Below are positions 14,439 through 62,252 of a stretch of 64,000 nucleotides of DNA, in pieces. This DNA comes from a virus. Lineage: Duplodnaviria; Heunggongvirae; Uroviricota; Caudoviricetes. Made by a program: the position numbers and the translations under genes. Under the pieces are notes generated by a model. It did no database searches. It worked only from the letters and a program-made list of their open reading frames with translations, and was not told the origin of the DNA. Every line of letters begins with the position of its first letter. Within the stretch, counting starts at the first letter, position 1. Location of the stretch: the IMG/VR virus record IMGVR_UViG_3300028534_000514, positions 1 to 64,000 of that record; one strand, written 5' to 3'.

Positions 14439-14522
14439 ATAGTATCCTTTATATAAATGTATTGAATCTTTGTTATCATAATCTAACCCGCGCAGGAAAA
14501 ACTATTGGCCAAAGCCAATAGT

Positions 14523-15215
14523 TTATAGAATATTTTTAGCGTCTTTAGCTGCCATTTTTATAATAAGATCTCTAAATTTTTCCATATCCGTTTCTTGGAT
14601 AATATTTTTAAATATTTCTAAAAATAGATTTTGTTTTTTAACATGTTCATCAAGAAGTTCGATATTTTCTTCTACCAAATTCTTTTTGGCCACCTTTTCA
14701 AAATGTAACAGTGTTTTTACAAAATCGTCAAATTGTGTCATATTATGATCTAATTCCTCTATAACTAATTCCCTTAGATTTATGAGATTTAAATCATCAC
14801 TTAGAAAATTATTTAAATTTTCAGGGGTATCTATTCCTTGATTTTTAAATATATTTCTAAGTATTTGATAAGGTAATAAAAACATAATAAAATTTACAAT
14901 TTTAAGAAGAAAAACTCTTTTTTCATCCTGATTATTAAATTTATAATAAATATTTTCAAAATCTATATCTAAATAGTTTTCATCCACATCTCTAAGCCAT
15001 GGTTCAAAAGTCTCTTCATACCACCATTCGAATTCAGTCGAGCTCATGTCTGTAATATCATGCTCGAAACTAAAATAATTAAAATTCTTAAAGTCATAAT
15101 CCCTAAGAAATTCAAATTCCGGGGCAAGAAGAATTGCTTCATTATAATCTGGCTTTAATGGTAAAACCGTTAAGGAATCCTGTTGATCCCCTCCGGTATC
15201 CTTATAATATATCAT
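14523..15215 (-). CDS. acidic hypothetical protein (230 aa)
   Basis: ORF track. Confidence 0.5.
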   Translation of the reverse strand: MIYYKDTGGDQQDSLTVLPLKPDYNEAILLAPEFEFLRDYDFKNFNYFSFEHDITDMSSTEFEWWYEETFEPWLRDVDENYLDIDFENIYYKFNNQDEKRVFLLKIVNFIMFLLPYQILRNIFKNQGIDTPENLNNFLSDDLNLINLRELVIEELDHNMTQFDDFVKTLLHFEKVAKKNLVEENIELLDEHVKKQNLFLEIFKNIIQETDMEKFRDLIIKMAAKDAKNIL

Positions 15216-15277
15216 TTACTTCCTTTTCACTTTATATTCTTTATATTCTTTATATTATAAAAATATATAGATTGTTG

Positions 15278-15556
15278 CTATGTTTGAGCATGACGTTTAT
15301 GTACGATCTCTTTAGCACGATTTACTTTCGCCCTAATCTCTGGAGGTATATTTTTTCCTCCACGATTTAAAAAGAAGTTTAATCTAGCCATCGTTGTTTT
15401 AAGGCTGGCTTTACCGTGCTGGGAAATTATATTCGCGATTTCTTCAGCAGATTTCTCTTTAAATGTTCCAGCTGGCGGATGAAATTTTTCACGGACTTTA
15501 TTTGCCCATTTTTCTTCAGCTTCCTCAATAAGTCTTTCAATTTTTTGCTCTAGCAT
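15278..15556 (-). CDS. small basic protein (92 aa)
   Basis: ORF track. Overlaps the upstream gene by 20 nt. Confidence 0.45.
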   Translation of the reverse strand: MLEQKIERLIEEAEEKWANKVREKFHPPAGTFKEKSAEEIANIISQHGKASLKTTMARLNFFLNRGGKNIPPEIRAKVNRAKEIVHKRHAQT

Positions 15557-16655
15557 TTTTTATCCTTTTATTTTTCTTAGTATTTTTTATCCTTTGCTGT
15601 TCTTCGATATAATCATCAATGGTACGTTTTAAATCGAGCCATGCTTCTGTAACATACTTTGGTTTTTTAGGAAGAGTTCTGCGATTCGGAAAAACTTTAA
15701 AGTAATATTTCTTTACTTTATTCCACTCTCTTAATCCAACTTTTTTTCTTTTAGGTATTTCTATTGGATGAATAATGTCTTTTTGGTCCTCGAGATAATC
15801 AGCCATTCTTCTAAGTACATCAGGCAATTCTTCGTTTGAGATGCCATGACGAGCAGCGTTGTTTTCCGAACGAGCTAAAAATGTGTTACACATACTACAG
15901 ACTGCCCCACGAATACGCCCGGTACCTTTAACTCGCTTTTGATGCATATGATCCAAAGTTGGATCTTTTACGGGTTTACCACAAATTGTACATTTACCTT
16001 TCTGTTTATGTAAAAGAGCATCTCTTAAAGGTTTAACAGCTTTTGATTTACAAACCCACATAAAATGAGGCAAATAAGTTTTATTAATATTGAACCCCAA
16101 GTCGTTAGGAACTGTAATTTTATTTTTTGTATTTCGCTGTTGGTAAAGAGCTTCAATAGTATGTGCTTCTAAAAGAGCGCATTCGATTTTATCGATTGGT
16201 TCTATTTTAAAAGATTTCCATTTATGAGGATTCCATAACTTATCGAAATCTTCTAGAAAATTTCCCTCTGATTTTTCATCGAGATTTGACAATATCCCTA
16301 TTTTCTCAAACATCATGCCTGTCTCTTTATGAGTAACAAGAATACGATAATAGAGAGCTCGAGTCTCAAAGATTTCAGGTTGATCTTTATTTTTCTTGAA
16401 GAAATCTAACCAGAAATCTCCGCCAGAGTATTTCAATTCATCTTTAATTGTTTTTTGAGCTTCTTCTAAAATATTCATCATACGAGACGATTTTAAGAAT
16501 TGACACCGAGGACAATCACCGTTCCCCCGTTTTACTTCCTTAACTTTTTTATAATATAAGCCATGCTCTTCACAGGTAATCGAAATAAAATCTTCATCAG
16601 AATTTATCTCTTTAGGAATGAAGTGCATGCTTTCTGGAAGTTGTAATACGTTCAT
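15537..16655 (-). CDS. HNH endonuclease of the endonuclease VII type, with N-terminal Zn-ribbon region
   Basis: C-terminal half KGKCTICGKPVKDPTLDHMHQKRVKGTGRIRGAVCSMCNTFLARSENN matches the T4 endo VII DHxH...G.IRG.LC..CN signature. Confidence 0.65.
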   Translation of the reverse strand: MNVLQLPESMHFIPKEINSDEDFISITCEEHGLYYKKVKEVKRGNGDCPRCQFLKSSRMMNILEEAQKTIKDELKYSGGDFWLDFFKKNKDQPEIFETRALYYRILVTHKETGMMFEKIGILSNLDEKSEGNFLEDFDKLWNPHKWKSFKIEPIDKIECALLEAHTIEALYQQRNTKNKITVPNDLGFNINKTYLPHFMWVCKSKAVKPLRDALLHKQKGKCTICGKPVKDPTLDHMHQKRVKGTGRIRGAVCSMCNTFLARSENNAARHGISNEELPDVLRRMADYLEDQKDIIHPIEIPKRKKVGLREWNKVKKYYFKVFPNRRTLPKKPKYVTEAWLDLKRTIDDYIEEQQRIKNTKKNKRIKNARAKN

Positions 16656-16743
16656 TTATTTCCTTTATAAAAATGTAAGATTATTTTCGAGCAATTGCTC
16701 AGAAATAATCTTTTAGATTATTTCTTCTCAAAGGGAGCAAACC

Positions 16744-19700
16744 TTATAGATCTGGATCTAATATAGCTCCCCTGAAAAAGGTTTCAACCAATTTCTTAGT
16801 TTTTCCCTCTGCCGAATCGACATGTAAATCAAATATTTTTGGCATTTTACCAGTTTTAAGAACTTCTTTTTGGAATTTTCTTTTTGCCTCTTTATTATCA
16901 GAATGTAGTCCGTGAACTTCTTTTATAAGTAGACCAGGTTCTTTATAAGACATTCCAAATAAATCATATAATCCTAGCTTAATTGCTCCGGCTCCTACTC
17001 TAGTTCCGGAGCGTCCTTGTCCTGTAGTAAACTGACTTTTGACAGATAACGACCCCCGCGCACCAGCCATTGCCTTAGGAAAATGTTCCAAATAATTTAC
17101 AGGCATTATTCCAACAGGAACCTCTTTCTCTGTAAGAATATCTTCCTCTGGTACATATACCTTTTCATTAAGCGGAATACCCAAAACATTAGCAGCTTTC
17201 TGTATATTTTCAATAGTTATTTTATTTTTATGCGGAGGTACTAATAAAGGAAATGCCGGTCTTGATAGAGGATCACTTCCTAAAATATATTTCTTAATTT
17301 CTTGTGAAGAGCGGCTATCAAAGAAACCCATTACTTCATTTATTAAGAATTTATCTTTTGATTCATCCATATGGGTAAATACTTCTAGGATAAGTTCTCT
17401 AGCTTTTGATATTTGATCAGCTTTCGCTAATTCTTGAAGCTTCTTATTTAAGAAGTAAATAACTTTTCCACTATACATTAATAGAAGAATACTTACGTTT
17501 TTTCTTGATACAATCGAAAGTGGAGTTGGTATAAATTCAATCTTCATATTGGTTTTTTCCGAAACGGGTTCTTTACCTTTTGGTATGATGTATTGAACTG
17601 TTCCTTTACCACCGGTTGCTGCTAACGTAAACTTAGATCCATTTGCTATTTTATTTGGTTTTTCTATATAAATTTCGACAACTGCTCCATCGAATTCTGA
17701 GCCATTTACCGAATGCCCTCCGATTTTTATAATCTCTGTATTTGGGATATCAGAAATACAATCAACGTATTCCTTATGATTATGTTTTAAAAGTTGACAT
17801 TCTTGTTGTCTAGCTTCAACATCCTTTGCCATTTTTTTCCACTCTTTAAAAACTGTACTATCAACATTTTTATTATTTATTTTAATAACAATATCCGTAA
17901 TTTTTCCTCCGGGAGAACGGTAGTTTGTCTGCTGGCCGCTAAATTCAACTCCGGTTAAAACATCGTCTGATGTTGACTCGTCATCCTCTTCCTCGACAAT
18001 AAATCTATCAAGATTATTGCTTCCGGAAAAAGAAATTAAAATATCACCAGGATCAGTCTCTTTGCCAGATAAAAGATTCCAATCAACTATTTTTGCATCA
18101 ACTGGTATAACAACTATAACTTTTTCAAGAATTTTTTGCTCGTATTTATCCTGAACGCTTTCAGTGACTACCCAACCATCTTCATAATTCATTCCTCTAT
18201 ACGACATTTCAGCAACTACCAGGTTTTTACCACTAGCCAATTTTCCAGTTTTTAGACTCGAAGTTGTTGCTAATAAATCACCTTCTTTTACTCTTTGTCC
18301 GTCTTTAGCAATTACGTGGTATTTCATTGGGATATAAATACCACGTTTAGTTCTAGCTCTGGTTGGTTTAATACTATACTTAGATTGGGTTCCATCTCTA
18401 TTCTTAATAATAATTGTTTCATCAGTTATACTTGAAATAATTCCATCTTTTTTAGCTTTAATAGCAAATCTATCAGAAACAAGATGAGGTATAATACTTT
18501 CAAAAGAGGTTTGAACAAGAGGTTCATCTGGATTATCTAATTGAACGAATTGTCCAAATTGTTGGTTACCCATAACCCTTCTGGTAGTATCATCATATTC
18601 GTAGAATGGTTGAAGTGATTCACTCGCGGATAATAAATCGAACGGGTTAATATCATCAGTAAATTCTCTCTGCATAATAGATCCAAATCGATCAGTAATG
18701 GTTGCTTTATTAGTTAGTGTTTGGGTACTACCAACATTTCCATACTCATTTGTAGATACTGGAGCGATTACACCATAATATGAAGGATTCAAATCCCTTT
18801 TCTTTAGGGTAACTTGATCGGCCTTCATATTATTAACACCTGTTTTTGTAATCTTAGAACTAAAGTTAATCTCTTCAAGTGGATTTGTAGTTTGAGTATA
18901 TTGTAACATACCGCTTGCTTGCAATCGCTTAACGATCGCCAATGGATCTAAAATAAGTTTAAGATCATAAGCGTTTCCGGACTGTTTAAGATTTCTAACT
19001 CTACCTAAAGCTTCTCCAAATACGTTATACGCACTATTAGAAATCGCCTCAGCCATACGAATACGTTGGGTATTCAAATCGTTAAAATCTTCTTCTTTAG
19101 CATTCATTAAATATTTTGGAATATATTTACCAAGAACATCCATCATATTCGATGGAATATTATACATTTTTAAAATTTTAGCTGTTGTTTGGTCAATAAA
19201 TTGCCTATTTAATGTCTCTAAATTTTTACCAAAGGATTCACCTTTCATTTTAAAAAAAGGATTCCATAAATCTTTAGAAGACAATTCTTTCTTTTCAACT
19301 GGAAAAATTAACTTCATACCATCGAGAAGTCCATTAATCATATATTCTTCGATAACGCTGGTTGCGAAAATAGAAAGATAATTATCTTTATCGTCTATTA
19401 ATTTAAGATGTAGGTGAGCCCCAGGAGCTTTTTTCTCTCCAAATTGATAACGAAATCCAAAAAATTTAAGAGTATCCATTAATCCAAGATTTGCTATAAA
19501 AAAATGAATAAGATTAATAGTTTTACCCTGTATCTTTAATCCAAATCGAGGTTTTGAACTCTTGGCCTTTAAATCTATTCTTTCGCCAAATACTTCTTTT
19601 GAAATATTTGTATATAAATTTATAAGAAATGAAACAATTTCTTCTTTTGGCCATTTTTTAAAGTCACCTTCTTCTGTATGAAAATGAATATCAGGATCAT

Positions 19701-19800
19701 CTGGTGTTATATAAGCATATTCGACAACCTTAGAACCATTTAATTTTTCATAAAAATATAGTTTATCTTTTTTTTCATTTTCAAAATTAATTCGATACAT
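16744..19800 (-). CDS. multisubunit RNA polymerase beta-subunit homologue, C-terminal part (Rif-region to C-terminus), highly diverged
   Basis: TTNPLEEINFSSKIT ~ QNNPLSEITHKRRIS. PSYYGVIAPVSTNEYGNVG ~ THYGRVCPIETPEGPNIGL. GKNLVVAEMSYRGMNYEDGWVVTES ~ [25 protein letters not shown]. 1018 aa. Own AACAAAGTAT promoter-like motif. Confidence 0.7.
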   Translation of the reverse strand: MYRINFENEKKDKLYFYEKLNGSKVVEYAYITPDDPDIHFHTEEGDFKKWPKEEIVSFLINLYTNISKEVFGERIDLKAKSSKPRFGLKIQGKTINLIHFFIANLGLMDTLKFFGFRYQFGEKKAPGAHLHLKLIDDKDNYLSIFATSVIEEYMINGLLDGMKLIFPVEKKELSSKDLWNPFFKMKGESFGKNLETLNRQFIDQTTAKILKMYNIPSNMMDVLGKYIPKYLMNAKEEDFNDLNTQRIRMAEAISNSAYNVFGEALGRVRNLKQSGNAYDLKLILDPLAIVKRLQASGMLQYTQTTNPLEEINFSSKITKTGVNNMKADQVTLKKRDLNPSYYGVIAPVSTNEYGNVGSTQTLTNKATITDRFGSIMQREFTDDINPFDLLSASESLQPFYEYDDTTRRVMGNQQFGQFVQLDNPDEPLVQTSFESIIPHLVSDRFAIKAKKDGIISSITDETIIIKNRDGTQSKYSIKPTRARTKRGIYIPMKYHVIAKDGQRVKEGDLLATTSSLKTGKLASGKNLVVAEMSYRGMNYEDGWVVTESVQDKYEQKILEKVIVVIPVDAKIVDWNLLSGKETDPGDILISFSGSNNLDRFIVEEEDDESTSDDVLTGVEFSGQQTNYRSPGGKITDIVIKINNKNVDSTVFKEWKKMAKDVEARQQECQLLKHNHKEYVDCISDIPNTEIIKIGGHSVNGSEFDGAVVEIYIEKPNKIANGSKFTLAATGGKGTVQYIIPKGKEPVSEKTNMKIEFIPTPLSIVSRKNVSILLLMYSGKVIYFLNKKLQELAKADQISKARELILEVFTHMDESKDKFLINEVMGFFDSRSSQEIKKYILGSDPLSRPAFPLLVPPHKNKITIENIQKAANVLGIPLNEKVYVPEEDILTEKEVPVGIMPVNYLEHFPKAMAGARGSLSVKSQFTTGQGRSGTRVGAGAIKLGLYDLFGMSYKEPGLLIKEVHGLHSDNKEAKRKFQKEVLKTGKMPKIFDLHVDSAEGKTKKLVETFFRGAILDPDL

Positions 19801-19825
19801 TATTATTCCTTTTAATATTAATAAT

Positions 19826-19837
19826 ACTTTGTTGAAT
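19826..19837 (-). promoter_or_regulatory. late-promoter-like motif TTCAACAAAGTA (minus strand) upstream of beta-C
   Basis: Same AACAAAG core as the other 10 copies, ~30 nt before the ATG. Confidence 0.45.
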
Positions 19838-19857
19838 GCTTAGATTTTGGGACAGGA

Positions 19858-19885
19858 AATCATAAGCCCGTAGGCTTATGATTTA
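19858..19885 (-). terminator. hairpin (aaatcataagcc-cgta-ggcttatgattt) followed by TTCCTGTCCC
   Basis: Perfect 12-bp stem. Follows the 92-aa gene. Part of the recurrent hairpin+TCCTGT architecture. Confidence 0.5.
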
Positions 19886-19963
19886 TTTTTTGGTTGCCCA
19901 ATCAGCGACGGCCTTCTGGATATCCATTTCCTTTTTACACTAAGGTATCTATTTTCATTTTAT

Positions 19964-20242
19964 TTAAAGAGTTTTCGCCGATTGTCTCATAACCTCAGCA
20001 TGATTTTTACCATAGAGTTTTTCACCCTCTTTTGCAAACTTTTTTATTTCATCCGGGGTCATTTTTTGCATCGATTTTAAATTTGCATAAATCCCAAGAC
20101 CACTACCAAGACCAAGACCAGTTCCCATGGTAGTGGCACCGAGAGCAGCCCCAACAGGACCTGCTGCTAGTCCGCCTCCAAGAGCCCCACCAAGAGCCCC
20201 GAAAGCACCAGCTTTTAAACCCTGTTTACCAGCAATTTTCAT
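19964..20242 (-). CDS. glycine-zipper small membrane protein (92 aa)
   Basis: GAFGALGGALGGGLAAGPVGAALGATTMGTGLGLGSGLG. An in-frame upstream 34-codon ORF is separated from it only by a TAG codon. Confidence 0.4.
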   Translation of the reverse strand: MKIAGKQGLKAGAFGALGGALGGGLAAGPVGAALGATTMGTGLGLGSGLGIYANLKSMQKMTPDEIKKFAKEGEKLYGKNHAEVMRQSAKTL

Positions 20243-20436
20243 CTTCCCAATTGTAGTTTGTAACTCAGCAATCTATTCTGGAGACATTCCTTGAAGCTGC
20301 AAAGCCATATTTCTATTACGCATATCATCCCAAGCTTCCTCAATTAATGAAGCAATTTTATTTTCAACAATATTCATCTATTTTTCCTTTTTTTTCATGG
20401 TATTTTTTTATCCTTATTTTGTTCAAAACTATCAAA

Positions 20437-21282
20437 TTATATTTTATTTAATTTAAGAATATCTTCTTTAAAGAATTCTGTCCGCCCACCTTTAGTTTCA
20501 GGCCAGCTTGGGTTCTCGCAACGTATATAATTAAAAGCTTCTAATATTTCTTGCTCTGCTAGATATGCATCCTGTCCATTTTCATAAGTTTGCTCAAACA
20601 GAGCAATTGCTCGTTTAGAGCAAAATTCCTTACCAAAACGTTCTTCTATACTATTGTTAGTAATACCTATTTTATATAGATCTTCTTGTGGATCCCAAAT
20701 ATAATATAAGATAGCAGGCTTATCTGGATTAAAGCCATTTTTAGAACATCTTGGGCAACCAGCACCCTTATAAAGATGATTCATCGCAAAAACCTCGAAA
20801 TTACCATGAATTTCACAATTTAATTTAATTTTATCAAAAATATTATTATAATTTATATCGCTATAATTATATTTATCTCCATGAATAGCTTTCGATTCTC
20901 TAATAAACTCATTTCTTCTTTTATTCAGATCGCATGATGGACACCCACTTCCTTTTAAATGTAAACGTGCAGTTGTTTTAAAAACTCCACATTCGCATAC
21001 AATACTAAGAGTTCTATTCCACAGGCGGTCATAACCAATTAAATCATAGTTATATTTATCTCCATGAATATCTTTAAATCTTATTATTAATTTATCTCGT
21101 TTTTCTTCTTTTTTACAATGTGGACATCCACTTCCTTTTAAATGATCAGAAGGAGTTTTTTTAAATATACCGTGCTTTTCACACTCTATATTTATAGGAG
21201 AATGAGCTCCGAAATATTCGCTATAACTATATTTATTATTATGAATTCCATTTGCTCGCTCCACAAAATCATTTAAAGTCAT
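20437..21282 (-). CDS. homing-endonuclease-like protein: three Zn-ribbon repeats + C-terminal T5orf172/GIY-YIG-like domain
   Basis: Three repeats of H(G/N)DKYNY...C..HG.F......HLKGSGCP.C. C-terminus ILYYIWDPQEDLYKIGITNNSIEERF. Start codon overlaps the beta-N stop (TAATG). Confidence 0.6.
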   Translation of the reverse strand: MTLNDFVERANGIHNNKYSYSEYFGAHSPINIECEKHGIFKKTPSDHLKGSGCPHCKKEEKRDKLIIRFKDIHGDKYNYDLIGYDRLWNRTLSIVCECGVFKTTARLHLKGSGCPSCDLNKRRNEFIRESKAIHGDKYNYSDINYNNIFDKIKLNCEIHGNFEVFAMNHLYKGAGCPRCSKNGFNPDKPAILYYIWDPQEDLYKIGITNNSIEERFGKEFCSKRAIALFEQTYENGQDAYLAEQEILEAFNYIRCENPSWPETKGGRTEFFKEDILKLNKI

Positions 21283-23097: not shown

Positions 23098-23847
23098 TTA
23101 ATTTAAGAAAAATATAAAATCATCTGGTGGTAGATTTTTCATAGATTCAATTGTATCTCGTCTTAATTGATTTCCTTCGTCTATCCAAGATCTACTTGCG
23201 ACTTGAACTTCTCCATAAGGACTTGAAAAATTTTCAAATTTAGAACGAATTCTACCAATATATATCATTATATCCGCCAGAGCTAAATCTCTTAAATATA
23301 CATATAAATCTGGATTTACCGTTGTTGGGTCAGGATGTATACACGCAACATCAACAATAAAATCTTGAGAAAATGTAATACTATCTGTTGTTCTGGTTAT
23401 TTCGATTTTGTCTGGGGCAAAAAATCTCCAAGTATGAGGAGCAACCGCTATATTCGACATATGTAAATAATTCATATTCATTAGCATTTCTGTAACATCC
23501 TGCATATTTGTACGCAAGGCTTGCGAATAAAACATATTTAAATCTTCAACTGAAGAGGTCGGGATTATGTTATTAATCTTCATTATTTGATAACAGAAAT
23601 TTTTAAATTGGTAAATATAGGTCGGATTTTCGGTTATACAATTTTCAGAGTATGTCATACGATAATATCTAATTAATGGGTTATATTTGCTAAAAAGAGG
23701 CAGCGTATGTTCTTTTATAATATCAGTCATTTCCTCATCAGTGAATTCGAAGGTATTAGTGCTCGCTCCTAAATTTAACTTAATGTAATCAATTAAGTTA
23801 GCAAAGTTTTGCCAACTACATGTTGATGTTCCACAGGTATCTGCCAT
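23098..23847 (-). CDS. hypothetical protein (249 aa)
   Basis: ORF track. Lies between the beta' and beta genes. No motif recognised. Could be an additional RNAP-associated subunit. Confidence 0.45.
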   Translation of the reverse strand: MADTCGTSTCSWQNFANLIDYIKLNLGASTNTFEFTDEEMTDIIKEHTLPLFSKYNPLIRYYRMTYSENCITENPTYIYQFKNFCYQIMKINNIIPTSSVEDLNMFYSQALRTNMQDVTEMLMNMNYLHMSNIAVAPHTWRFFAPDKIEITRTTDSITFSQDFIVDVACIHPDPTTVNPDLYVYLRDLALADIMIYIGRIRSKFENFSSPYGEVQVASRSWIDEGNQLRRDTIESMKNLPPDDFIFFLN

Positions 23848-23965
23848 AAAATATCCTTTTTATCTTTTTTATTTTTATATTACAATTTGTTGCTAGAGGC
23901 AATATGTTCAGGTATTCTTCAATTTTTTGGCACAGGAAAAAATTAGAGACTTCTGTCTCTAATTT

Positions 23966-24547
23966 TTATGGACGATAAAATACACCGATTGAAGAGCGAA
24001 CTGTCGTATCTTTTTTTCTTTCAATGGGTTTTACTGTTTTTTCTTTTCTTGGATGTACTGGAAGATCATCTTCTGGTAAAACAATTTCCATTGGTTTAGG
24101 ATTTCTTTTTGGTTTTTTATTTCCAACAGCAGAGGTATTATTTTTTTTGGCGACTGGTCTTACGCTCCTCTCGGCGTGCACGGATTCGTTCAACTCTTTT
24201 GTCTTCTCCTGTGCTGTTTCCTGATTTGTCTTTGGTGTCGACTGGTTCGGGCTTTCTTGCTCGGATTCTTCCAAATCTTTCTTTGGCTTCTCTGATTCTT
24301 TTTTGGAAGCCTTCTTTTTTTCTTGTTGCCCTGTTGGTTCCTGCAGATTTTCCTCGCATTTTTCTTCACCTTTTTCTTCTAGTATTTCAAGGGAGGAATC
24401 CTCCTCGATTCTTGACTCGACCTCTGTAACTTCGATTTCTTTAAGTTCATTTTCTTCGATATCAGGTATACCAATATCTGTTAGATCTTTTAATTCACTA
24501 TTTTCAATTTCGTTGTCTACAATTTCTTCTTTCTTTTTTCTTGCCAT
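23966..24547 (-). CDS. highly charged, low-complexity protein (193 aa)
   Basis: E/K-rich disordered sequence. Confidence 0.45.
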   Translation of the reverse strand: MARKKKEEIVDNEIENSELKDLTDIGIPDIEENELKEIEVTEVESRIEEDSSLEILEEKGEEKCEENLQEPTGQQEKKKASKKESEKPKKDLEESEQESPNQSTPKTNQETAQEKTKELNESVHAERSVRPVAKKNNTSAVGNKKPKRNPKPMEIVLPEDDLPVHPRKEKTVKPIERKKDTTVRSSIGVFYRP

Positions 24548-35741: not shown

Positions 35742-36104
35742 ATGCTAGAAGCTAAAATCGAAAAACTATTAGAAGAAACTTTTCAAGAACTACAGGAGGG
35801 GAGAGATACCTCTAATGTTATTGCTGCTGTGACCGGACTTCCTGGTCTTTATACGGGTATGTATAATGGTATGTACAATAAACATAAGGAATCTTTAGTA
35901 AAAGCAGATCTCCAAGCTTTAAATGGAGAACCCGGAGCATTAACTAAAAATGATAATATGCTTGGTAAAATAGGTTATAGTCTTGCCGGAGCTATTCCGG
36001 TTGTTGGTTCTATTACAAATACTATGGCTGCAAATCAGCGATGGGATGCTGTCGACAAGCTTAATGCCGCTAGAGCCAAAAAAGGATTACCTCCTATTGA
36101 TTAA
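35742..36104 (+). CDS. hypothetical protein (~120 aa; start revised to MLEAKIEKL)
   Basis: The track ORF starts at 35703 inside the terminator hairpin. The internal start has SD aaaaggatttacaATG. Confidence 0.5.
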   Translation: MLEAKIEKLLEETFQELQEGRDTSNVIAAVTGLPGLYTGMYNGMYNKHKESLVKADLQALNGEPGALTKNDNMLGKIGYSLAGAIPVVGSITNTMAANQRWDAVDKLNAARAKKGLPPID

Positions 36105-36114
36105 GGATTAATAA

Positions 36115-36423
36115 ATGAATTATGACATTGAAAGAAAAATTGAAAGTCTAATAGAAGAGAGCCTATGGCAGGCTGTTAAAGCGAATCCTGGTAAATCAGC
36201 GGCCGCTGGTGGTGCTATGGGATTACTTGGACATAGAATCGGATCTGGTAAGATTTCTGGAGATATCGATTATCTTAAGAATACACCAGTCAAAGAAATG
36301 GGCAATGATTTAATGGATAATATTAGTAAAGGCACTGATAAAGTATTGAATACAACAGCAGGTGAAGCTGTTGATAGTGCGAGTAGCAGTTTATCGGATA
36401 TTTATCATTCAGTAGCAGGTTAA
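36115..36423 (+). CDS. glycine-zipper protein (102 aa)
   Basis: KSAAAGGAMGLLGHRIGSG. Confidence 0.5.
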   Translation: MNYDIERKIESLIEESLWQAVKANPGKSAAAGGAMGLLGHRIGSGKISGDIDYLKNTPVKEMGNDLMDNISKGTDKVLNTTAGEAVDSASSSLSDIYHSVAG

Positions 36424-36449
36424 AGATTTCTGGGTTCGCCCAGAAATCT
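36424..36449 (+). terminator. hairpin agatttctggg-ttcg-cccagaaatct followed by TTCTGTCTTTT
   Basis: Perfect 11-bp stem with a UUCG tetraloop directly after the stop codon. Confidence 0.6.
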
Positions 36450-36463
36450 TTCTGTCTTTTATT

Positions 36464-36480
36464 TTTTAACAAAGGTATAA
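36464..36480 (+). promoter_or_regulatory. late-promoter-like motif TTTTAACAAAGGTATAA
   Basis: AACAAAG core, 24 nt upstream of the ATG at 36504. Confidence 0.45.
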
Positions 36481-36503
36481 TTTAGACTAAAAAAGGAATT
36501 TGT

Positions 36504-36824: not shown

Positions 36825-36855
36825 ATGTAAAATATAAAGAGAAAAAAGGATTAGC

Positions 36856-37557: not shown

Positions 37558-37559
37558 TT

Positions 37560-37946: not shown

Positions 37947-37979
37947 TCAATATCAATATAAACATAAAAAGGAAATAAA

Positions 37980-39014: not shown

Positions 39015-39027
39015 AAAAGGATAAATA

Positions 39028-40086: not shown

Positions 40087-40088
40087 AA

Positions 40089-40112
40089 TTTGTAGGCCTT
40101 CGGGCCTGCAAA
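40089..40112 (+). terminator. hairpin tttgtaggcc-ttcg-ggcctgcaaa followed by TCCTGTCTTTT
   Basis: 10-bp stem with a UUCG loop after the 39028 gene. Confidence 0.6.
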
Positions 40113-40136
40113 TCCTGTCTTTTAAAAAACCGAAGA

Positions 40137-44370: not shown

Positions 44371-44402
44371 AAGGTAAAGAGGATGATGAGGGCTAGCCCT
44401 CA
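44371..44402. terminator. bidirectional hairpin gaggatgatgagggc-ta-gccctcatcatcctc between convergent genes
   Basis: 15-bp perfect stem. Sits between the + gene ending at 44352 and the - gene ending at 44393. Confidence 0.6.
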
Positions 44403-44923
44403 TCATCCTCCTGTGATTTTCTAGAAACGCTAGCCTCTATTACGAGACCAGTAAGGTGCTTCATAAGCACCTCATCAATAGCCGTTTCTATTTCTTCCTC
44501 TGATAGTTTTTCACCGGGAATTATACGAATGGTAACCACTCGCGTTTTCCCGGTGAAATTAACAGGGATTTTCTTCTCGTACGCCTCCCCGTTTTTAATA
44601 GTTTTCGAGGGAGTACTTTCCATCTCAGAAAGCACTTCCTTTGCAATATTTTGAAGATCTTCCAAAGGAAGATCTTTAATAGCGTTTAGGGTTTTTTTCA
44701 TTTTAACCCATCGGTATATCGCGAGCATCATAATAGCGATTACGCTTGATACCAGCACCTCGCCTGGTGCCAAGTATACTACACCTAGATTTTCCATTAT
44801 ATAGGCAAACCCAGAACCCACGATAAAGACTAATCCGGTTGCCCAGATTAGCCCGACTATAAGCCATTGTATTTGAGTAGATCTTGATCTACTCATAATA
44901 TCTTTTGGTAATTTTGGTAACAT
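44393..44923 (-). CDS. membrane protein (176 aa, N-terminal 2-3 TM + soluble C-domain)
   Basis: ORF track. SD aaggagataaaATG. Upstream (minus sense) of it lie the conserved 45-nt element and a TATAAT-like box. Confidence 0.45.
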   Translation of the reverse strand: MLPKLPKDIMSRSRSTQIQWLIVGLIWATGLVFIVGSGFAYIMENLGVVYLAPGEVLVSSVIAIMMLAIYRWVKMKKTLNAIKDLPLEDLQNIAKEVLSEMESTPSKTIKNGEAYEKKIPVNFTGKTRVVTIRIIPGEKLSEEEIETAIDEVLMKHLTGLVIEASVSRKSQEDDEG

Positions 44924-45097: not shown

Positions 45098-45114
45098 CTA
45101 AACAAAGATTTACA
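45098..45114 (+). promoter_or_regulatory. late-promoter-like motif CTAAACAAAGATTTACA
   Basis: ~25 nt upstream of the fibre gene ATG at 45134. Confidence 0.5.
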
Positions 45115-49851: not shown

Positions 49852-49879
49852 AAACCATTGAGCTCGAGCTCAATGGTTT
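49852..49879 (+). terminator. perfect 28-nt palindrome aaaccattgagctc|gagctcaatggttt followed by TTTCCTGTCC and AACAAAGAT
   Basis: Directly after the fibre gene stop. Confidence 0.55.
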
Positions 49880-49919
49880 TTCCTGTCCAAACAAAGATAC
49901 ATAATAAAAAGGAGAAATA

Positions 49920-51171: not shown

Positions 51172-51212
51172 ATTTTCGAGCAATTGCTACTTTTGAGCAA
51201 AAGCTCGAAAAT
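51172..51212. repeat. GAGCAATTGCTA palindromic element copy with palindromic flanks, intergenic
   Basis: attttcgagcaattgctacttttgagcaaaagctcgaaaat. Confidence 0.7.
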
Positions 51213-51230
51213 CTTCCTGTGCTTTATATT

Positions 51231-51246
51231 TCAACAAAGATATATT
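51231..51246 (+). promoter_or_regulatory. late-promoter-like motif TCAACAAAGATATATT
   Basis: ~25 nt upstream of the ATG at 51269. Confidence 0.5.
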
Positions 51247-56416: not shown

Positions 56417-56424
56417 TAACTAAA

Positions 56425-56444
56425 CGAGAGGGAAATTCCTCTCG
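56425..56444 (+). terminator. hairpin cgagaggg-aaat-tcctctcg followed by TTTTCCTGTGCC
   Basis: Directly after the stop at 56416. The AACAAAGAT motif follows at 56461-56477. Confidence 0.55.
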
Positions 56445-56504
56445 TTTTCCTGTGCCTGGGATTTCAACAAAGATAAGAAAGAATAAAGATAAAAGGAATA
56501 TAAA

Positions 56505-57368
56505 ATGCCTAAAATTCTAATGAAGAGAAATGATATATCAGGCGTGGCTCCAGATGTGTCAGAAATAGAGCTTGGCGAAATAACTATTAATACCTATGAC
56601 GGAAAATTATATACAAAAATAAATAATGGTACGGAAGCGATTATTGAAATTGGTGGTTCTGGTGGTACCCCAACGGGTTTAGAATTAATAGATGAAGGAA
56701 GAGGTCCGGGTTGGCGTTTGATTGGGCGAGACCCAGATAACTACGGAGAGATGGCTCGAGATGCAGTTGATGTTTCATCAAGTTATTCTCATAGCTTGGC
56801 TAATGGCGCCACAGGGCAGGCTTCATTCGCCGCAAATATTAATACGAAAGCAATGGGACTTGGTTCAGCCGCTTTTAATAATGAAAATTATGCTATTGGG
56901 GACTATTCCTTTGCTATAGGGACAAAAACCAAAGCGACAGGTATGGCCTCTTTTGCTGCTGGTTTCGCATCAGAGGCTTCTGGATACTGCGCAATTTCTA
57001 TGGGGTACGGTGCAACAGCAAGCGCGAAAGCTTCGTTTAGTTGTGGTAGAAACACAAATGCTAAAAATGAAAATAGTGTTGCAATGGGCTCTTATAATCT
57101 TGGTAGTTCTGATGATACACTATTTGAATTTGGTATTGGTTATTTTGATAGTTCTACAGGCGCACATAAAAAGAATGCTTTCGAGATATATAATGATGGA
57201 AAATTAACTGCCCCTGAATTAACACCGGATATTGTCGATACTGATCTTAATAATTTAGTTCCGGTTAGTTATCTACTTAGTCCAGAATTTGGTAATAGAT
57301 TGCCAACTATACCTGGAGATCCAGGAACATTATATAAAGATGAAAATGGTTTTGTAAAGGTCTCTTAA
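56505..57368 (+). CDS. tail-fibre-like protein (287 aa), second paralogue family
   Basis: N-terminal domain MPKILMKRNDISGVAPDVSEIELGEITINTYDGKLYTKINNGT, then a G/A/S-rich region with YSFA.G repeats. Confidence 0.55.
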   Translation: MPKILMKRNDISGVAPDVSEIELGEITINTYDGKLYTKINNGTEAIIEIGGSGGTPTGLELIDEGRGPGWRLIGRDPDNYGEMARDAVDVSSSYSHSLANGATGQASFAANINTKAMGLGSAAFNNENYAIGDYSFAIGTKTKATGMASFAAGFASEASGYCAISMGYGATASAKASFSCGRNTNAKNENSVAMGSYNLGSSDDTLFEFGIGYFDSSTGAHKKNAFEIYNDGKLTAPELTPDIVDTDLNNLVPVSYLLSPEFGNRLPTIPGDPGTLYKDENGFVKVS

Positions 57369-57370
57369 GT

Positions 57371-57388
57371 TTTTAACAAAGATTTATA
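57371..57388 (+). promoter_or_regulatory. late-promoter-like motif TTTTAACAAAGATTTATA
   Basis: ~30 nt upstream of the ATG at 57418. Confidence 0.5.
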
Positions 57389-57417
57389 GTAGAAAAAGAT
57401 AAAGATAAAGGATAAAT

Positions 57418-59826
57418 ATGCCTCGCATTATACTTAAAAAGAATTCAAGTGCTGGTAGTGTCCCATTAAATTCTGAATTGGAATTGGGTGAATTAGCAAT
57501 AAATACAAATGATGGTAAATTATTTACTAAAAAATTTGATGGTGTTCGTGAGTCGGTCGTTGAGATCGGTGGCGGAGGAACCCCTACTGGATTGGAGGCT
57601 CTAGATGAAGGTAATGGAATCGGTTGGCGTTTAATCGGTCGAGATCCAAATGTTTATGGCGATATCGGATTCCAAGCAGTCGATTTTAGTTATAAAGATC
57701 CGACAAATGAAGTGTCTACTTTAAGGGGAGCAACCGGTCAAGGATCAACGGCATTTGGTTATGATACTATAGCCAGTAATAATGATTCATTTGCTGTTGG
57801 TTATAAAACTAATGCTAATGGCGATCATTCCTTCGCTGAAGGAAATTTTACATCAGCAGATGGCATTGGTTCACATGCCGAAGGGTTAGGTACAAAAGCC
57901 ACTGGTAATTATAGTCACGCAGAAGGACGCAATACTTATGCTGCAGCTTATTATAGTCACGCCTCTGGTTCGTACACAACTGCGGGTTATATTAACCAAT
58001 TTGTAATTGGTACAAATAACCTTAATAAATCAACTACTTATTTTGAGGTCGGTAACGGTACAGGTGGTTCGGGCGGCGATGATAGCAATGCCTTCGAGGT
58101 TTATAGAACAGGTGAGATTTTTGCACCGGTGTTAACACCTTCTTTAATTGATAATGCTGACAATAAAGTTCTTGTTACTAAAGAATGGGTTCAAGCTAAT
58201 GCTGGGTCCGGTGGGAATCTAATTAATATTGATAATGGTTATGGAATTCCAGAAGCTGTTGATAATACAGGTACCGTTGGAACAAGAGCTATTGATTTTT
58301 CTGTTAACGGTGACGGCGCTACAGGAACAGGAAGTTTAGCCGTCGGAGAATATAATGAAGCTTCAGGAAATTACGCAGTAGCGTTTGGAGGATACGCAAC
58401 AGCAAGTGGAAATTATTCCTTCGCCGTTGGTTATGGTATAAAGGCAAGTGAAAGTTGCTCAATAGCCACTGGGTATAATACAACTGCCTCAGGTAGCTAT
58501 TCAAGTGCTTCTGGGTATTATACAACGGCTAGTGGTGATTATTCAACAGCTTTTGGATATTATGCAACAGCAAGTGGTGATTATTCAACAGCTTTTGGTG
58601 TGAATACGAGCGCATCCGGGACAAACTCATTTGCTATTGGTTATAGAACAGTAGCTAATAAAGAAAGTATGGTTGCTGTTGGTAAATATAATGCAGCCTT
58701 CGAAGATAATCAAATATTTGTAGTTGGTATTGGTACCGCTATGGAAGATTATAGGAATGGACTTGAGGTATTTACTGATGGGCGTGTTCAGGCACCGGAA
58801 CTATCTATTGCTTTAATTGATGATGCTAATACAAGCGATAGAGTTCTCGTTACACGAGAATGGGTTCAAGCTAATGCTGGTGGAGGAAATCCAACTGGAT
58901 TGGAAGCTCTGGATGAAGGTAATGGAATCGGTTGGAGATTAATTGGCCGAGATCCAGATAACTATGGTGACATCGGACTGAACGCTATTGATTTAAGTTA
59001 TTATGATCAATCTAGCACAGATCGTGGAGCAACAGGTACCGGATCATTTACTGTTGGCTACGCTGTTCGTGCACAAGCTGATTATTCAGCAGCTTTTGGT
59101 TATTCGACCACAGCTAAAGGTAATTATACAATTACTCAAGGTTATCATACTACAGCTTACGCTACAGGATCACATTCTGAAGGTAAAGGAACAGCTACTT
59201 ATGCAGATTATTCCCACGCTGAGGGTGTAAATACATATACTTATAATACCGGTGCTCACTCTGAGGGTTATCAGACAAACGCCGCGGCTGAATACAGTCA
59301 CGCTGAAGGTGTCCATACCCAAGCTAGTGGCTATGCTTCGCACGCTGAGGGATTCTATACACAGACAAGTAATGACTACTGTCATGTTATGGGTACCTAT
59401 AACGTAGATACTGATTATACAGTTATGCAAGTTGGTATCGGTGATAGCTCAACACGAAAAAATGCTTTTGAAGTATTTACAGACGGAACATTATATGCAC
59501 CTGAACTATCAACGACTGTTATAAATAATGCTGATCCACGAGTTCTTATCACAAAAGAATACGCTGATGCGAACTACGGTGGTTCTGGCGGAGTTGCTTC
59601 TCTTAACGACATCGGGGATGTCGACGTTGCAGGTGTAACCGATGGTCAAATTATTCAATGGAGTGCTGGTTCAAGCACTTGGTTAGCAACTGATCTTCCG
59701 GGTGGTGGAAACCTTCTATCAGATGGTAGTGTTCCGATGGATACAGGTTATACACCAGTAAATGATCAGGATATTGCTACAAAATATTATGTAGATAATC
59801 ATGATGTTGATGGAGGAACGTTCTAG
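57418..59826 (+). CDS. tail-fibre protein (802 aa) with YadA/Hep_Hag-like 14-residue repeats
   Basis: N-terminus MPRIILKKNSSAGSVPLNSELELGELAINTNDGKLFTKKFDG. Dozens of (S/Y)SHAEG..T.A.G.YSHA repeats. Internal duplication of GTPTGLEALDEGNGIGWRLIGRDP. Confidence 0.6.
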   Translation: MPRIILKKNSSAGSVPLNSELELGELAINTNDGKLFTKKFDGVRESVVEIGGGGTPTGLEALDEGNGIGWRLIGRDPNVYGDIGFQAVDFSYKDPTNEVSTLRGATGQGSTAFGYDTIASNNDSFAVGYKTNANGDHSFAEGNFTSADGIGSHAEGLGTKATGNYSHAEGRNTYAAAYYSHASGSYTTAGYINQFVIGTNNLNKSTTYFEVGNGTGGSGGDDSNAFEVYRTGEIFAPVLTPSLIDNADNKVLVTKEWVQANAGSGGNLINIDNGYGIPEAVDNTGTVGTRAIDFSVNGDGATGTGSLAVGEYNEASGNYAVAFGGYATASGNYSFAVGYGIKASESCSIATGYNTTASGSYSSASGYYTTASGDYSTAFGYYATASGDYSTAFGVNTSASGTNSFAIGYRTVANKESMVAVGKYNAAFEDNQIFVVGIGTAMEDYRNGLEVFTDGRVQAPELSIALIDDANTSDRVLVTREWVQANAGGGNPTGLEALDEGNGIGWRLIGRDPDNYGDIGLNAIDLSYYDQSSTDRGATGTGSFTVGYAVRAQADYSAAFGYSTTAKGNYTITQGYHTTAYATGSHSEGKGTATYADYSHAEGVNTYTYNTGAHSEGYQTNAAAEYSHAEGVHTQASGYASHAEGFYTQTSNDYCHVMGTYNVDTDYTVMQVGIGDSSTRKNAFEVFTDGTLYAPELSTTVINNADPRVLITKEYADANYGGSGGVASLNDIGDVDVAGVTDGQIIQWSAGSSTWLATDLPGGGNLLSDGSVPMDTGYTPVNDQDIATKYYVDNHDVDGGTF

Positions 59827-59828
59827 TT

Positions 59829-60524: not shown

Positions 60525-60535
60525 TAATTATTAGA

Positions 60536-60552
60536 ATAACAAAATATTACAA
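60536..60552 (+). promoter_or_regulatory. late-promoter-like variant AATAACAAAATATTACA
   Basis: ~22 nt upstream of the ATG at 60574. Confidence 0.35.
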
Positions 60553-60573
60553 TTAAATATAAAAGGATTTTAA

Positions 60574-62061
60574 ATGGCTATTAGCATTCAATTAAAAAGA
60601 GGACCAAGTACTAATCTTGGAAATATTACTGCGAAAGATGGAGAACTCGTTTGGTTAACGGACGAAAAACGTTTTAGAGTCGGTTCAGACGATGGTACTA
60701 CTCAATCTTGGCAAACCCTTAGTTATGCACAGATTGATTCAAATGGTTTAGTTCCATCAACTCAGCTGCCAATTGACGATACAGCTGGTGTTGGAGATAC
60801 TGGAAAATTACTTTCTGCTGATGAAATTGCAAATAGATTAACTTCTGGTGCTACTTATCTTGGATTATGGAATCCAGACGGTTCAGGTGGACCAGGTACA
60901 CCAGCCCTTAGTGATGGAACTGGGGATAATGGAGACTTCTATATTGTTGAAACTGGTGGCGACGCTGATTTCGGTAGCGGAACAATTACCTTCATCGAAG
61001 GTGATAGAGTTATGTATCAAACAAGTGATAATACTTGGAAAAGAATTGTTTCTGCAAATAGTGTTGACTCAGTAAATGGTCAAACAGGTGTAGTTATTCT
61101 TGGAATGAATGATATTAATGATGTCATCATTGATAGCGGAACATTGGCTGCTGATGACTATATTAAATGGGATCCAACAGCTGATGGTGGTAATGGAGCT
61201 TGGGTAAATGCAGCACCACAATCAGTTGCTATTGATGACTTGAGTGATGTTGATACAACTACTGTTGCCCCAACTGTAGGTCAAACACTTAAATGGGACG
61301 GAACAAACTGGACTCCACAAGATGACAACAACTCAATTGCTAGTCTTGATGATATCGGCGATGTTAATGTTACTGGTGTAACTGATGGACAGATTATTGT
61401 TTGGGACGATGCTTCCGGCGAATGGCAGGCAAGTGATCTTCCAACTGGTGTTGATGGTACCTTTATTGGATTAACAGATACCCCAAGTGCATACAATAGT
61501 GGTGATGCCGGCAAATTTGTAAAAGTTAATGCTGCAGAAGATGGACTTGAGTTTGTAGAAGTAACTACTGATGGTATTGCTGAAGGTTCTACAAATCTAT
61601 ATTATACAGATGCTCGTGTTGATGGTAGAATTGCCGCTGCTAATATTGAAGACCTAGCTAACGTAACTGTTACTAGTGTTTCAGATAATGAAATTCTTCA
61701 GTGGAATTCAAGTACAAGTCAATGGGAAAATGTAGCAATCTCTAACGTAACTGTTCAAAGCATTGATGATCTTGATGATGTTGATACTTCTACAACTGCA
61801 CCTACTGATGGTCAAACACTTAAATGGGATGCAGCCAACAGTCAGTGGGTACCTGCTGATGATATTGATACAGATACAACTTATACTTCTGGCACAGGAA
61901 TCTTTATCGATGAAGAAGGCGGAAATTCAATTAATCTTGATGCTGGAATTGATCTATTGACTGATGTTGATACAACAACTACTGCTCCGAGTACAGACGA
62001 TGTTCTTTCATGGGATGGTACAAACTGGGTACCAACTGCTATTGATGGTGGACAATTCTAG
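60574..62061 (+). CDS. tail-fibre-like protein (495 aa) with D/T/V-rich repeats
   Basis: Repeats D(D/V)DTTT(V/T)AP(T/S)(V/D)GQTLKWDG(T/A)NW and NLYYTDARVD, also present in the 1566-aa fibre. Confidence 0.55.
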   Translation: MAISIQLKRGPSTNLGNITAKDGELVWLTDEKRFRVGSDDGTTQSWQTLSYAQIDSNGLVPSTQLPIDDTAGVGDTGKLLSADEIANRLTSGATYLGLWNPDGSGGPGTPALSDGTGDNGDFYIVETGGDADFGSGTITFIEGDRVMYQTSDNTWKRIVSANSVDSVNGQTGVVILGMNDINDVIIDSGTLAADDYIKWDPTADGGNGAWVNAAPQSVAIDDLSDVDTTTVAPTVGQTLKWDGTNWTPQDDNNSIASLDDIGDVNVTGVTDGQIIVWDDASGEWQASDLPTGVDGTFIGLTDTPSAYNSGDAGKFVKVNAAEDGLEFVEVTTDGIAEGSTNLYYTDARVDGRIAAANIEDLANVTVTSVSDNEILQWNSSTSQWENVAISNVTVQSIDDLDDVDTSTTAPTDGQTLKWDAANSQWVPADDIDTDTTYTSGTGIFIDEEGGNSINLDAGIDLLTDVDTTTTAPSTDDVLSWDGTNWVPTAIDGGQF

Positions 62062-62072
62062 GAATAAGCTTT

Positions 62073-62086
62073 GCGACTTCGGTCGC
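62073..62086 (+). terminator. hairpin gcgac-ttcg-gtcgc followed by GGGCTTTTTCCTGTGCT
   Basis: After the stop at 62061. The AACAAAAGAT motif follows at 62111-62127. Confidence 0.5.
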
Positions 62087-62252
62087 GGGCTTTTTCCTGT
62101 GCTTAAAAATTTTCAACAAAAGATTACGATATATATCGTATCTAAAGTGAATAAGTCCTCTGGACTTATCTAAAAACCTGCGGTTTTTAGATTGTGAAAA
62201 ATTCACTTTTCAAAATAAAATCAAAAGTTATTTGATTTAAAAAATCAAATGA

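Follow-up and report, generated by a model that had tools for sequence, protein, structure and literature searches.

The stretch of DNA studied here (the window; positions 1 to 64,000 of IMG/VR record IMGVR_UViG_3300028534_000514) belongs to the genome of an uncultured jumbo phage (about 285 kb) whose multisubunit RNA polymerase (RNAP) is phage-encoded and split. The window covers 64 kb, or 22%, of this genome. We analysed two short elements that are repeated between its genes: the promoter-like word AACAAAG and a hairpin followed by a CCTGT tail. The GC content of the window is about 33%. Up to 32709 the genes are on the minus strand, from 32792 they are on the plus strand, and the GC skew reverses at this switch. 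The RNAP genes include those of a beta-C-like protein with Pfam Rpb2 domains 3 and 6 (16744-19800(-)), a beta'-N-like protein (26154-27419(-)) and a beta'-C-like protein (24871-26043(-)). The window also contains genes for a primase-helicase, RecJ, ribonucleotide reductase and several homing endonucleases, four tRNA genes and a run of tail-fibre-like genes. The unknown genes at 32792-40086 and 13851-14438 gave no match in Pfam or PHROGs.

The preliminary description of this DNA listed 11 promoter-like sites. All of them are present and are displaced by a few bases at most (Table 1). It had given AACAAAG(A/G)T as the motif, with one of the 11 copies named as a variant. Eight copies match the motif exactly; the other three are variants (AACAAAGTAT at 19827(-), AACAAAATAT at 60538 and AACAAAAGAT at 62115). 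The eight exact copies of AACAAAGRT compare with 2.96 ± 1.66 expected, and the highest number in 100 shuffles was seven. The heptamer AACAAAG occurs 12 times on the two strands, and ten of these copies are intergenic, though intergenic DNA makes up only 8.1% of the window (binomial P = 7e-10). Each of the ten has a start codon in the same orientation 23-36 nt downstream. One of them, at 32740-32746(-), was absent from the earlier list. It stands back to back with the site at 32750(+) in the divergent region, each serving its own gene. The relaxed pattern AACAAA-N5-A gave 21 matches, and the 13 intergenic ones, among them the variants at 60538 and 62115 and two weaker AACAAAT sites, are all co-oriented with a gene. 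Its density between genes is 18-fold that inside genes. Thus, the motif is not equally common inside genes, which the preliminary description had named as an outcome that would refute a promoter role. When k-mers were counted in oriented intergenic DNA with no prior assumptions, the top ones were the ribosome-binding site AAAGGA, TTTCCTGT, GAGCAATTGC and AACAAAGA.

Table 1. Promoter-like sites and hairpin-tail units located in the window.
Element	Sequence	Position	Strand	Remarks
Promoter-like site	AACAAAGATTCA	14463..14474	-	predicted start 14463; 25-nt leader; gene 13851-14438
Promoter-like site	AACAAAGTATTA	19822..19833	-	predicted start 19822; 22-nt leader; RNAP beta-C gene 16744-19800; kept in L030, L023, L025
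Promoter-like site	AACAAAGAGGAA	32735..32746	-	26-nt leader; gene 31528-32709 (predicted intein + putative RNAP beta' catalytic segment); new site
Promoter-like site	AACAAAGATAGA	32750..32761	+	31-nt leader; gene 32792-33229; back to back with 32735..32746(-)
Promoter-like site	AACAAAGGTATA	36468..36479	+	25-nt leader; gene 36504-36824, head of baseplate-like block; orthologous sites in L032, L033, L034
Promoter-like site	AACAAAGATTTA	45101..45112	+	22-nt leader; 1566-aa fibre-like gene 45134-49834
Promoter-like site	AACAAAGATACA	49890..49901	+	19-nt leader; fibre-like gene 49920-51158
Promoter-like site	AACAAAGATATA	51233..51244	+	25-nt leader; gene 51269-54067
Promoter-like site	AACAAAGATAAG	56466..56477	+	sole site with G at position 12; 28-nt leader; gene 56505-57368
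Promoter-like site	AACAAAGATTTA	57375..57386	+	32-nt leader; YadA-repeat fibre gene 57418-59826
Variant site	AACAAAATATTA	60538..60549	+	25-nt leader; tail-fibre gene 60574-62061
Variant site	AACAAAAGATTA	62115..62126	+	195-nt highly structured leader; gene 62321-63424
Weaker AACAAAT candidate	AACAAATCAAAA	27441..27452	-	22 nt before RNAP beta'-N gene 26154-27419
Weaker AACAAAT candidate	AACAAATTGTAA	23880..23891	-	33 nt before gp13-like virion gene 23098-23847
Hairpin + tail	AATTTCCTGT	7747..7781	-	new unit
Hairpin + tail	TTTTCCTGTGC	13829..13868	-	
Hairpin + variant tail	TTTTTCCTGCGC	14490..14524	-	
Hairpin + tail	TTTCCTGTCC	19850..19884	-	
Hairpin + tail	TTTTTTCCTGTGC	23930..23967	-	
Hairpin + tail	TTTTCCTGTAA	26092..26140	-	
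Hairpin + tail	TTTTCCTGTGT	35669..35704	+	
Hairpin + variant tail	TTTCTGTC	36422..36458	+	
Hairpin + tail	ATCCTGTC	40088..40120	+	
Hairpin + tail	CCTCCTGTGA	44379..44416	+	convergent gene end, no same-strand gene downstream; new unit
Hairpin + tail	TTTTTCCTGTCC	49852..49888	+	tail abuts promoter word
Hairpin of GAGCAA repeats + tail	TCTTCCTGTGC	51172..51222	+	new unit
Hairpin + tail	TTTTCCTGTGC	56422..56455	+	
Hairpin + tail	TTTTTCCTGTGC	62070..62102	+	

The genes behind the word encode tail-fibre and fibre-like proteins (45134, 49920, 51269, 56505, 57418 and 60574), the first protein of the baseplate-like block (36504) and polymerase beta-C; two unknown genes at the divergent point and one gene for a protein of 195 amino acids (aa) are served as well. 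The PHROG families found among the served genes are tail-fibre and virion families. The word is lacking before the replication genes (primase, RecJ, reductase) and before the small genes at 1-9 kb. By the kinds of genes involved, this distribution fits a late, structural regulon.

We compared the window with its relatives. A megablast search with 10 kb of the window gave no DNA-level match in the phage collection. The best cultured matches of the beta protein share only about 23% identity with it and belong to AR9-group phages (Listeria LPJP1, Staphylococcus S6, Yersinia phiR1-37 and Fusobacterium phages). When all window proteins were compared with the AR9 genome, the matches were limited to the polymerase pieces, the homing endonucleases and ribonucleotide reductase. 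A protein search yielded 128 RNAP beta-like sequences with E ≤ 1e-10, of which at least 116 belong to the window's own uncultured family; contigs of this family that carry beta homologues reach 290 kb. Relatives were obtained through the protein database with contig look-ups and through an alignment-based IMG/VR scan. Six loci were used, the surroundings of the beta gene (L030, L023, L025) and of a baseplate-region gene (L032, L033, L034), with 87-57% identity in the protein used for finding each locus. Three more distant relatives have beta identities of 59% (L042), 47% (L028) and 45% (L043, a 181-kb IMG/VR contig). Protein-guided locus searches gave no usable relatives in IMG/VR with the single beta protein, one 1.4-kb contig of no use in the JGI metagenomes, and in GTDB genomes nothing and then bacterial rpoB only.

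From the window and the six relative loci, 29 sites selected on the heptamer alone were aligned. Counting from the first A, position 12 is A in 28 sites and G in one (P = 1e-11, a value that overstates independence because the sites are partly orthologous). In all 29 sites, AACA is followed by a purine exactly 6 nt later. Positions 9-11 and everything downstream of position 12 vary freely, and nothing is fixed upstream of the word except T-richness; neither a -35 nor a -10 element is conserved around these sites. If position 12 is taken as the start, the predicted leaders are 19-33 nt long, except for the one of 195 nt at 62115. In the relatives, the word occupies orthologous positions: it precedes the beta gene, the baseplate block and MRRN-type fibre genes and stands on either side of the divergent region. 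Its flanking bases drift. In L043 the word is AACAAAT, which occurs 17 times. Eight of these copies are intergenic, all eight are on the gene strand, and their positions 11-12 are TA in seven cases and TG in one (AACAAAT-N3-TA). Host sigma-70 promoters with -35 and -10 hexamers 16-18 nt apart were rejected as an explanation, since 80 such sites were counted compared with 83.3 ± 9.3 expected, none of which coincides with a promoter-like site, and no hexamers are conserved. Searching the literature for AACAAAG by itself gave nothing but irrelevant results. The composite pattern TTTCCTGTGC-N(5-25)-AACAAAGAT was also looked for in IMG/VR. It was found in 22 loci with one or two motif copies each and a GC content of up to 49%, which is about the chance number, and these loci were discarded as chance or unrelated matches.

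Counted from the conserved A, the word has the register of the late promoters of phage AR9. The AR9 late consensus is AACA-(6N)-T-A/G, the last base being the start (PMC5312081, PMC7598289, PMC9209446), and not the form ending in T(A/T) that the preliminary description had given. It was reported at 94 of 118 non-early starts (PMC5312081). In AR9 this promoter is read on the template strand by the non-virion polymerase with gp226, and deoxyuridine is required at -11 and -10 (PMC5449584, PMC9209446). We tallied the 84 mapped late promoters from Table S3 of PMC5312081. All of them have AACA at -11 to -8; A occurs at -7 in 49, T at -1 in 79, and the start is A in 71 and G in 12, with a median leader of 31 nt. 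AACAAA is found in 22 of the 84, AACAAAT in 12 and AACAAAG in one, AACAAAGAATTA, a 12-mer that is also found in L023 and L034. The mapped AR9 promoters include the form AACAAAT...TA as well. From these tallies, the window word appears to be one restricted form of the AR9 promoter, with its register unchanged. The two have in common AACA at -11 to -8, a purine at the mapped or predicted start 6 nt on, the lack of a -35 element, short leaders and service to virion and virion-polymerase genes. In contrast to AR9, three further bases are fixed in the clade (AAG, or AAT in L043).

The polymerase genes were also compared with AR9. A tblastn search of the complete AR9 genome matched two proteins of the window, beta-C and the 549-aa product of 21282-22931, to g189, the virion-polymerase beta gene. 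The beta'-N protein matched the virion gene g145 at 6e-23 compared with 1e-5 for the non-virion g270, and beta'-C was ambiguous. Judging by the matches of beta-C, 21282-22931 and beta'-N, the polymerase set of the window is most probably that of the virion. The virion-RNAP genes of AR9 are late products with late promoters 22-27 nt upstream (PMC5312081). The beta gene of the window is split (16744-22931(-)) into beta-N (21282-22931), an HNH endonuclease gene (20437-21282), a 92-aa open reading frame (ORF; 19964-20242) and beta-C (16744-19800), and a putative terminator unit and a putative late promoter lie between the pieces. In relatives at about 59% identity, both halves form one protein of 1598 aa (P0035, P0036).

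The 11 hairpins of the preliminary description are all real, with stems of 8-16 bp and free energies of -9 to -21 kcal/mol. The CCTGTGC after them had been called invariant. We found CCTGT at nine of the listed hairpins, and the exact seven bases are replaced by CCTGCGC (14490), TTTCTGTC (36452) and CCTGTAA (26094). Three further units were found at 7747-7781(-), 44379-44416(+) and 51172-51222(+). In total, 14 gene ends have a hairpin on the coding strand with a free energy of -9 to -26 kcal/mol, that is, the GC-containing hairpin of an intrinsic terminator. At every strong one the order is the same: a run of one to six T, then CCTGT, usually as CCTGT(G/C)C, and often a run of A. The opposite strand of the same hairpins, which are often symmetric, never has the tail. 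Twelve of the 14 hairpin tails contain CCTGT within 7 nt, for which the probability by chance is about 5e-26, and TTTTCCTGTSC with at most one mismatch gave 10 matches compared with 2.24 expected. About 37 hairpin-tail units were found in the window and the six relative loci, and their stem sequences vary freely. The tail is also present in L042 and L028, and in L043 it is CTTGT(G/C), beside the changed promoter word. Terminator-like hairpins in 40 kb of AR9 have no CCTGT tail. The canonical combination of a hairpin and a T run (at least five T in 8 nt) is not enriched (12 vs 9.1 ± 3.5). Between 44.9 and 64 kb only two of six units have that many T, so that the U-tract of about 7-8 nt typical of an intrinsic terminator is missing. 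A search of Rfam found no family for the hairpin units and returned only the four tRNAs.

The sites, their position, orientation and conservation, their AR9-like geometry and the classes of genes served were all observed directly. We think it likely that they represent AR9-type late promoters with the clade word AACAAAG-N4-A, read by a phage polymerase, and intrinsic terminators made of a hairpin, a T run and CCTGT(G/C)C. AACAAAG-N4-A would be the promoter core, with AACA at -11 to -8 and the clade-specific AAG at -7 to -5, and transcription would start at the A eleven bases downstream of the first A. By analogy with AR9, the reader would most likely be a non-virion phage polymerase with a sigma-like specificity subunit, possibly reading the template strand. 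In this way the word may turn on the virion genes: tail fibres, baseplate-like genes, the head-tail adaptor and virion-polymerase subunits. The hairpin with its short T run and CCTGT(G/C)C would be a phage intrinsic terminator in which the tail belongs to the stop signal and compensates for a run of T that is shorter than a canonical terminator requires. The tail may act as a pause or release element 7-10 nt past the stem, at the point of RNA 3'-end formation. With CCTG, a pyrimidine-G step would fall at this point, as in the bacterial elemental pause consensus. Among sequence-specific stop words, only the T7 class II signal is well known, and it too contains CTGT. Adjacent terminators and promoters would cut the late region into short insulated units. 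Thus, the earlier proposal of a terminator plus a phage-RNAP promoter like that of AR9 is supported at the level of sequence by the register (29 of 29 sites), the virion genes served and the predicted leaders of 19-33 nt compared with the AR9 median of 31 nt.

Several observations weigh against this interpretation. No second polymerase set was seen within the 64-kb window, and phmmer and blastp searches found no homologue of AR9 gp226 among the window proteins (the best phmmer match, an HNH protein, had E = 0.006). Many of the 29 aligned sites are orthologous and hence not independent. T at -1 occurs in 14 of the 29 clade sites and in five of ten in the window, in contrast to eight of eight in L043 and 79 of 84 (94%) in AR9. 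The bare consensus AACA-N6-T-R is not enriched here (1.9 intergenic vs 1.3 per kb); since it does not discriminate, the specificity must lie in the longer word with the extra AAG. The low identity to the polymerases of AR9-group phages, given above, also belongs here. Finally, the AR9 enzyme needs deoxyuridine, whereas the window is known from sequence letters alone, and no marker gene of a deoxyuridine pathway was seen in it.

Other explanations of the promoter-like word have to be considered. It could be a late promoter read by the host RNAP core with a phage sigma-like factor, like the late promoters of T4 with their single -10-type word. This would agree with one short upstream word and no -35, since T4 gp55 promoters likewise consist of a single short word with no -35, and with the fact that neither a non-virion polymerase nor a specificity factor was found in the 64-kb window. 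However, the phage has its own multisubunit polymerase, sigma-70-type signals occur at chance level, and the word and its spacing to the conserved A match the AR9 non-virion-polymerase promoters base for base. We consider a host-core promoter quite unlikely. Transcription in T4 is reviewed in PMC2988021. The word could also act in the mRNA leader, in translation or stability, and not as a DNA promoter, because it lies 23-36 nt before the start codon and upstream of the AAAGGA ribosome-binding site. Its distance to the start codon and the ribosome-binding site varies, however, and reaches about 200 nt at 62115. Two copies stand back to back on opposite strands like divergent promoters, and the conserved A lies at a fixed distance of 11 nt, as expected for a start site. 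For these reasons, a role in the leader is very improbable.

The tail can be explained in more than one way too. The preliminary description had raised the possibility that CCTGTGC is an upstream promoter element, and indeed at seven of the 12 good promoter sites a hairpin with a tail lies at most 30 nt upstream of the word. The distance from hairpin to tail is fixed, but that from tail to AACAAA ranges from 8 to 26 nt, which assigns the tail to the terminator and not to the promoter. In addition, five promoter sites have no tail nearby, and six or seven hairpin-tail units have no AACAAA word after them. One of these units, 44379-44416, lies where two genes converge, opposite the 3' end of the gene on the other strand, and its counterpart in L032 is placed likewise. 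We therefore rejected the tail as a -35-like or UP element, and an upstream promoter element of any kind has hardly any probability left. A minor but appreciable probability remains for an RNA-level signal beside the hairpin, such as a site of cleavage, of 3'-end protection or of binding of a phage or host factor, rather than termination itself. The strict strand specificity of the tail and its fixed place next to a freely varying stem would suit recognition of a structure together with a short single-stranded word, and the pyrimidine-rich tail is complementary to the AGGAAAA-type ribosome-binding sites of the phage. On the other hand, most downstream genes have their own promoter, so that processing is not needed for separating the units, and no candidate nuclease is linked to the tail. 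Moreover, a canonical terminator needs a longer T run, and therefore an extra stop signal is expected at exactly this place. The units might mainly be recombination cassettes that shuffle tail-fibre modules, similar to the PeSL elements of T4-type phages, a role that is compatible with late promoters and terminators. The composite terminator and promoter layout is that described for PeSLs (PMC4122927, PMC2839356), the units flank paralogous fibre genes with common N-termini (MRRNPIYV / MKRNPLYV), and the gene content between units varies among relatives. Yet only the short words are common to the units, and their stems, spacers and leaders differ. Units are also found before unrelated core genes in syntenic position (polymerase beta, for instance), no indel breakpoint has been traced to a unit, and the early sigma-70-type promoter of a PeSL is absent. 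We regard this as an unlikely main function.

The terminator and promoter words are paired among the relatives: CCTGT goes with AACAAAG, and CTTGT with AACAAAT. We tentatively suggest, with more doubt than conviction, that a hairpin, a short T run and C(C/T)TGT(G/C) form a sequence-specific termination code for a non-canonical phage multisubunit polymerase, which co-evolves with the enzyme across the family.

The convergent hairpin at 44377-44412 (16625-16656 in L032) is shared by both strands. Its plus side has the CCTGT tail. On its minus side, where the only minus-strand gene of this region (44393-44923) ends, the tail is simply rich in T, and in L032 it has eight T in a row. These unlike tails may reflect two polymerases with different stop signals. 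The consecutive fibre-like genes 45134, 49920 and 51269 and the genes 56505 and 57418 have common N-termini (MRRNPIYV / MRRNPLYV / MKRNPLYV and MPKIL / MPRII, respectively), and each has its own promoter site. They are paralogous modules, which relatives may exchange.

The catalytic loop of the polymerase is seemingly split over two genes about 4 kb apart, 31528-32709(-) and 26154-27419(-), and the same is seen in L028 (20759-21973), L032 and L033. The first of them encodes a 393-aa protein whose residues 1-335 are modelled with a homing-endonuclease intein fold (pLDDT score of the predicted structure 84.7; Foldseek matches to VMA, PI-PfuI and PI-SceI inteins, E 1e-8, probability 1.0). Its end, '...AKN|SDGDVLGV...GLYAGTK', can be aligned with the catalytic loop of beta' as far as the GLYY motif. 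NSDGD is invariant in 36 homologues; the profile match to beta' (E = 0.28) is not significant on score. The beta'-N gene has no DxDGD and has '...SPLGGD|SLNTNF...' in its place, which is kept in relatives. Joining GGD and SDGD would restore DxDGD, and both junctions resemble intein splice junctions. The arrangement could be a trans-splicing split intein or a cis intein with an 11-residue N-extein.

The window contains other repeated elements. The 12-bp perfect palindrome GAGCAATTGCTC has eight exact copies (10067, 16689, 20601, 27516, 30962, 54216, 62261 and 62278) and one-mismatch copies at 22978, 37177, 40145 and 51178; with at most two mismatches, 15 copies were found compared with 2.0 expected. 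Most copies are flanked by further GAGCAA/TTGCTC half-sites and by GATTATTTT...AAAATAATC. The palindrome lies between genes (before the reductase, beta-N, an endonuclease VII-like gene and a fibre gene) and also within coding sequences, among them those of two HNH endonucleases and of the primase. L030, L023 and L032 have kept it. Possible roles are an operator array, a second class of promoter and a small mobile element of palindromic type. The 195-nt leader after the site at 62115 (62126-62323(+)) is predicted to fold as a chain of hairpins with a minimum free energy of -60.3 kcal/mol compared with -29.3 ± 3.7 for shuffles (z = -8.4). The last hairpin, formed by GAGCAATTGCTC, immediately precedes the ribosome-binding site of the gene 62321-63424. 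This could be a regulatory leader or a small RNA. A 17-mer, ATTAAAAACAGTAAAGG, occurs in three exact copies on the minus strand (4539-4555, 6619-6635 and 7703-7719), each immediately upstream of a small gene of that strand, with a three-mismatch copy at 5987, and ATTAAAAA...AAGG-like stretches precede other small genes in the same 1-9 kb region. These are candidate cassettes of an early promoter and a ribosome-binding site. The four tRNA genes are clustered at 8759-9646(-), inside a 1-kb ORF-free stretch. In L028, a 490-aa QueC-domain protein is encoded at 2289-3761. It hints at 7-deazaguanine DNA modification in a part of the family, which would bear on promoters being read on modified DNA.

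According to a review of 2020, middle and late promoters of polymerase-encoding jumbo phages are not predictable from sequence (PMC7598289). In this family they are predictable because the clade uses a longer word, and the putative late transcription units of a large group of uncultured phages can thereby be mapped at once. There is also evidence that the AR9 promoter grammar, AACA followed by the start purine, extends far outside the AR9 group, which hints at a shared, ancient promoter recognition. The hairpin-tail units are a clean natural set of non-canonical terminators for the study of termination by stripped-down polymerases, and the change of both words together in a distant relative is a natural specificity-swap experiment. 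A jumbo-phage review of 2026 does not mention termination (PMC13282480), and no structural aspect of termination by these polymerases has been defined (PMC9209446). If the termination code is real, no terminator grammar would have been defined for jumbo-phage polymerases before it.

Outside AR9, each element resembles known systems in part. The late promoters of phiKZ, T(-3)ATG(+1), are likewise very short, have no -35 and are read by a jumbo-phage non-virion multisubunit polymerase, but the phiKZ word is different, overlaps the start and has no upstream -10-like element (PMC7598289). The closest described layout is that of the T4-type PeSLs, in which a small stem-loop terminator adjoins a promoter and the whole is repeated between genes, where it favours the shuffling of modules (PMC2839356, PMC4122927). 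PeSL promoters, however, are early and of the host sigma-70 type and lie in hyperplastic regions of small genes (PMC2839356, PMC4122927), whereas here the word is of the phage-polymerase late type and the terminator has a conserved tail. As in canonical intrinsic terminators, a stable hairpin right after the stop codon is followed by T residues; unlike in them, the T run is only one to six long and is always followed by CCTGT(G/C)C. The T7 class II pause and termination signal (T)ATCTGTT is also a short stop word that contains CTGT and boosts termination together with a hairpin (PMC9157156). It acts on a single-subunit polymerase, is a different word and works with no hairpin in vitro (PMC9157156), whereas the word here is CCTGT(G/C)C or CTTGT and not ATCTGTT, and only multisubunit polymerase genes were seen in the window. 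The resemblance, which concerns the letters of the two words, is a lead only. The terminator tail is clade-specific and has no described counterpart, and the promoter, by its word and register, is of the AR9 type with a longer word, in a distant uncultured family.

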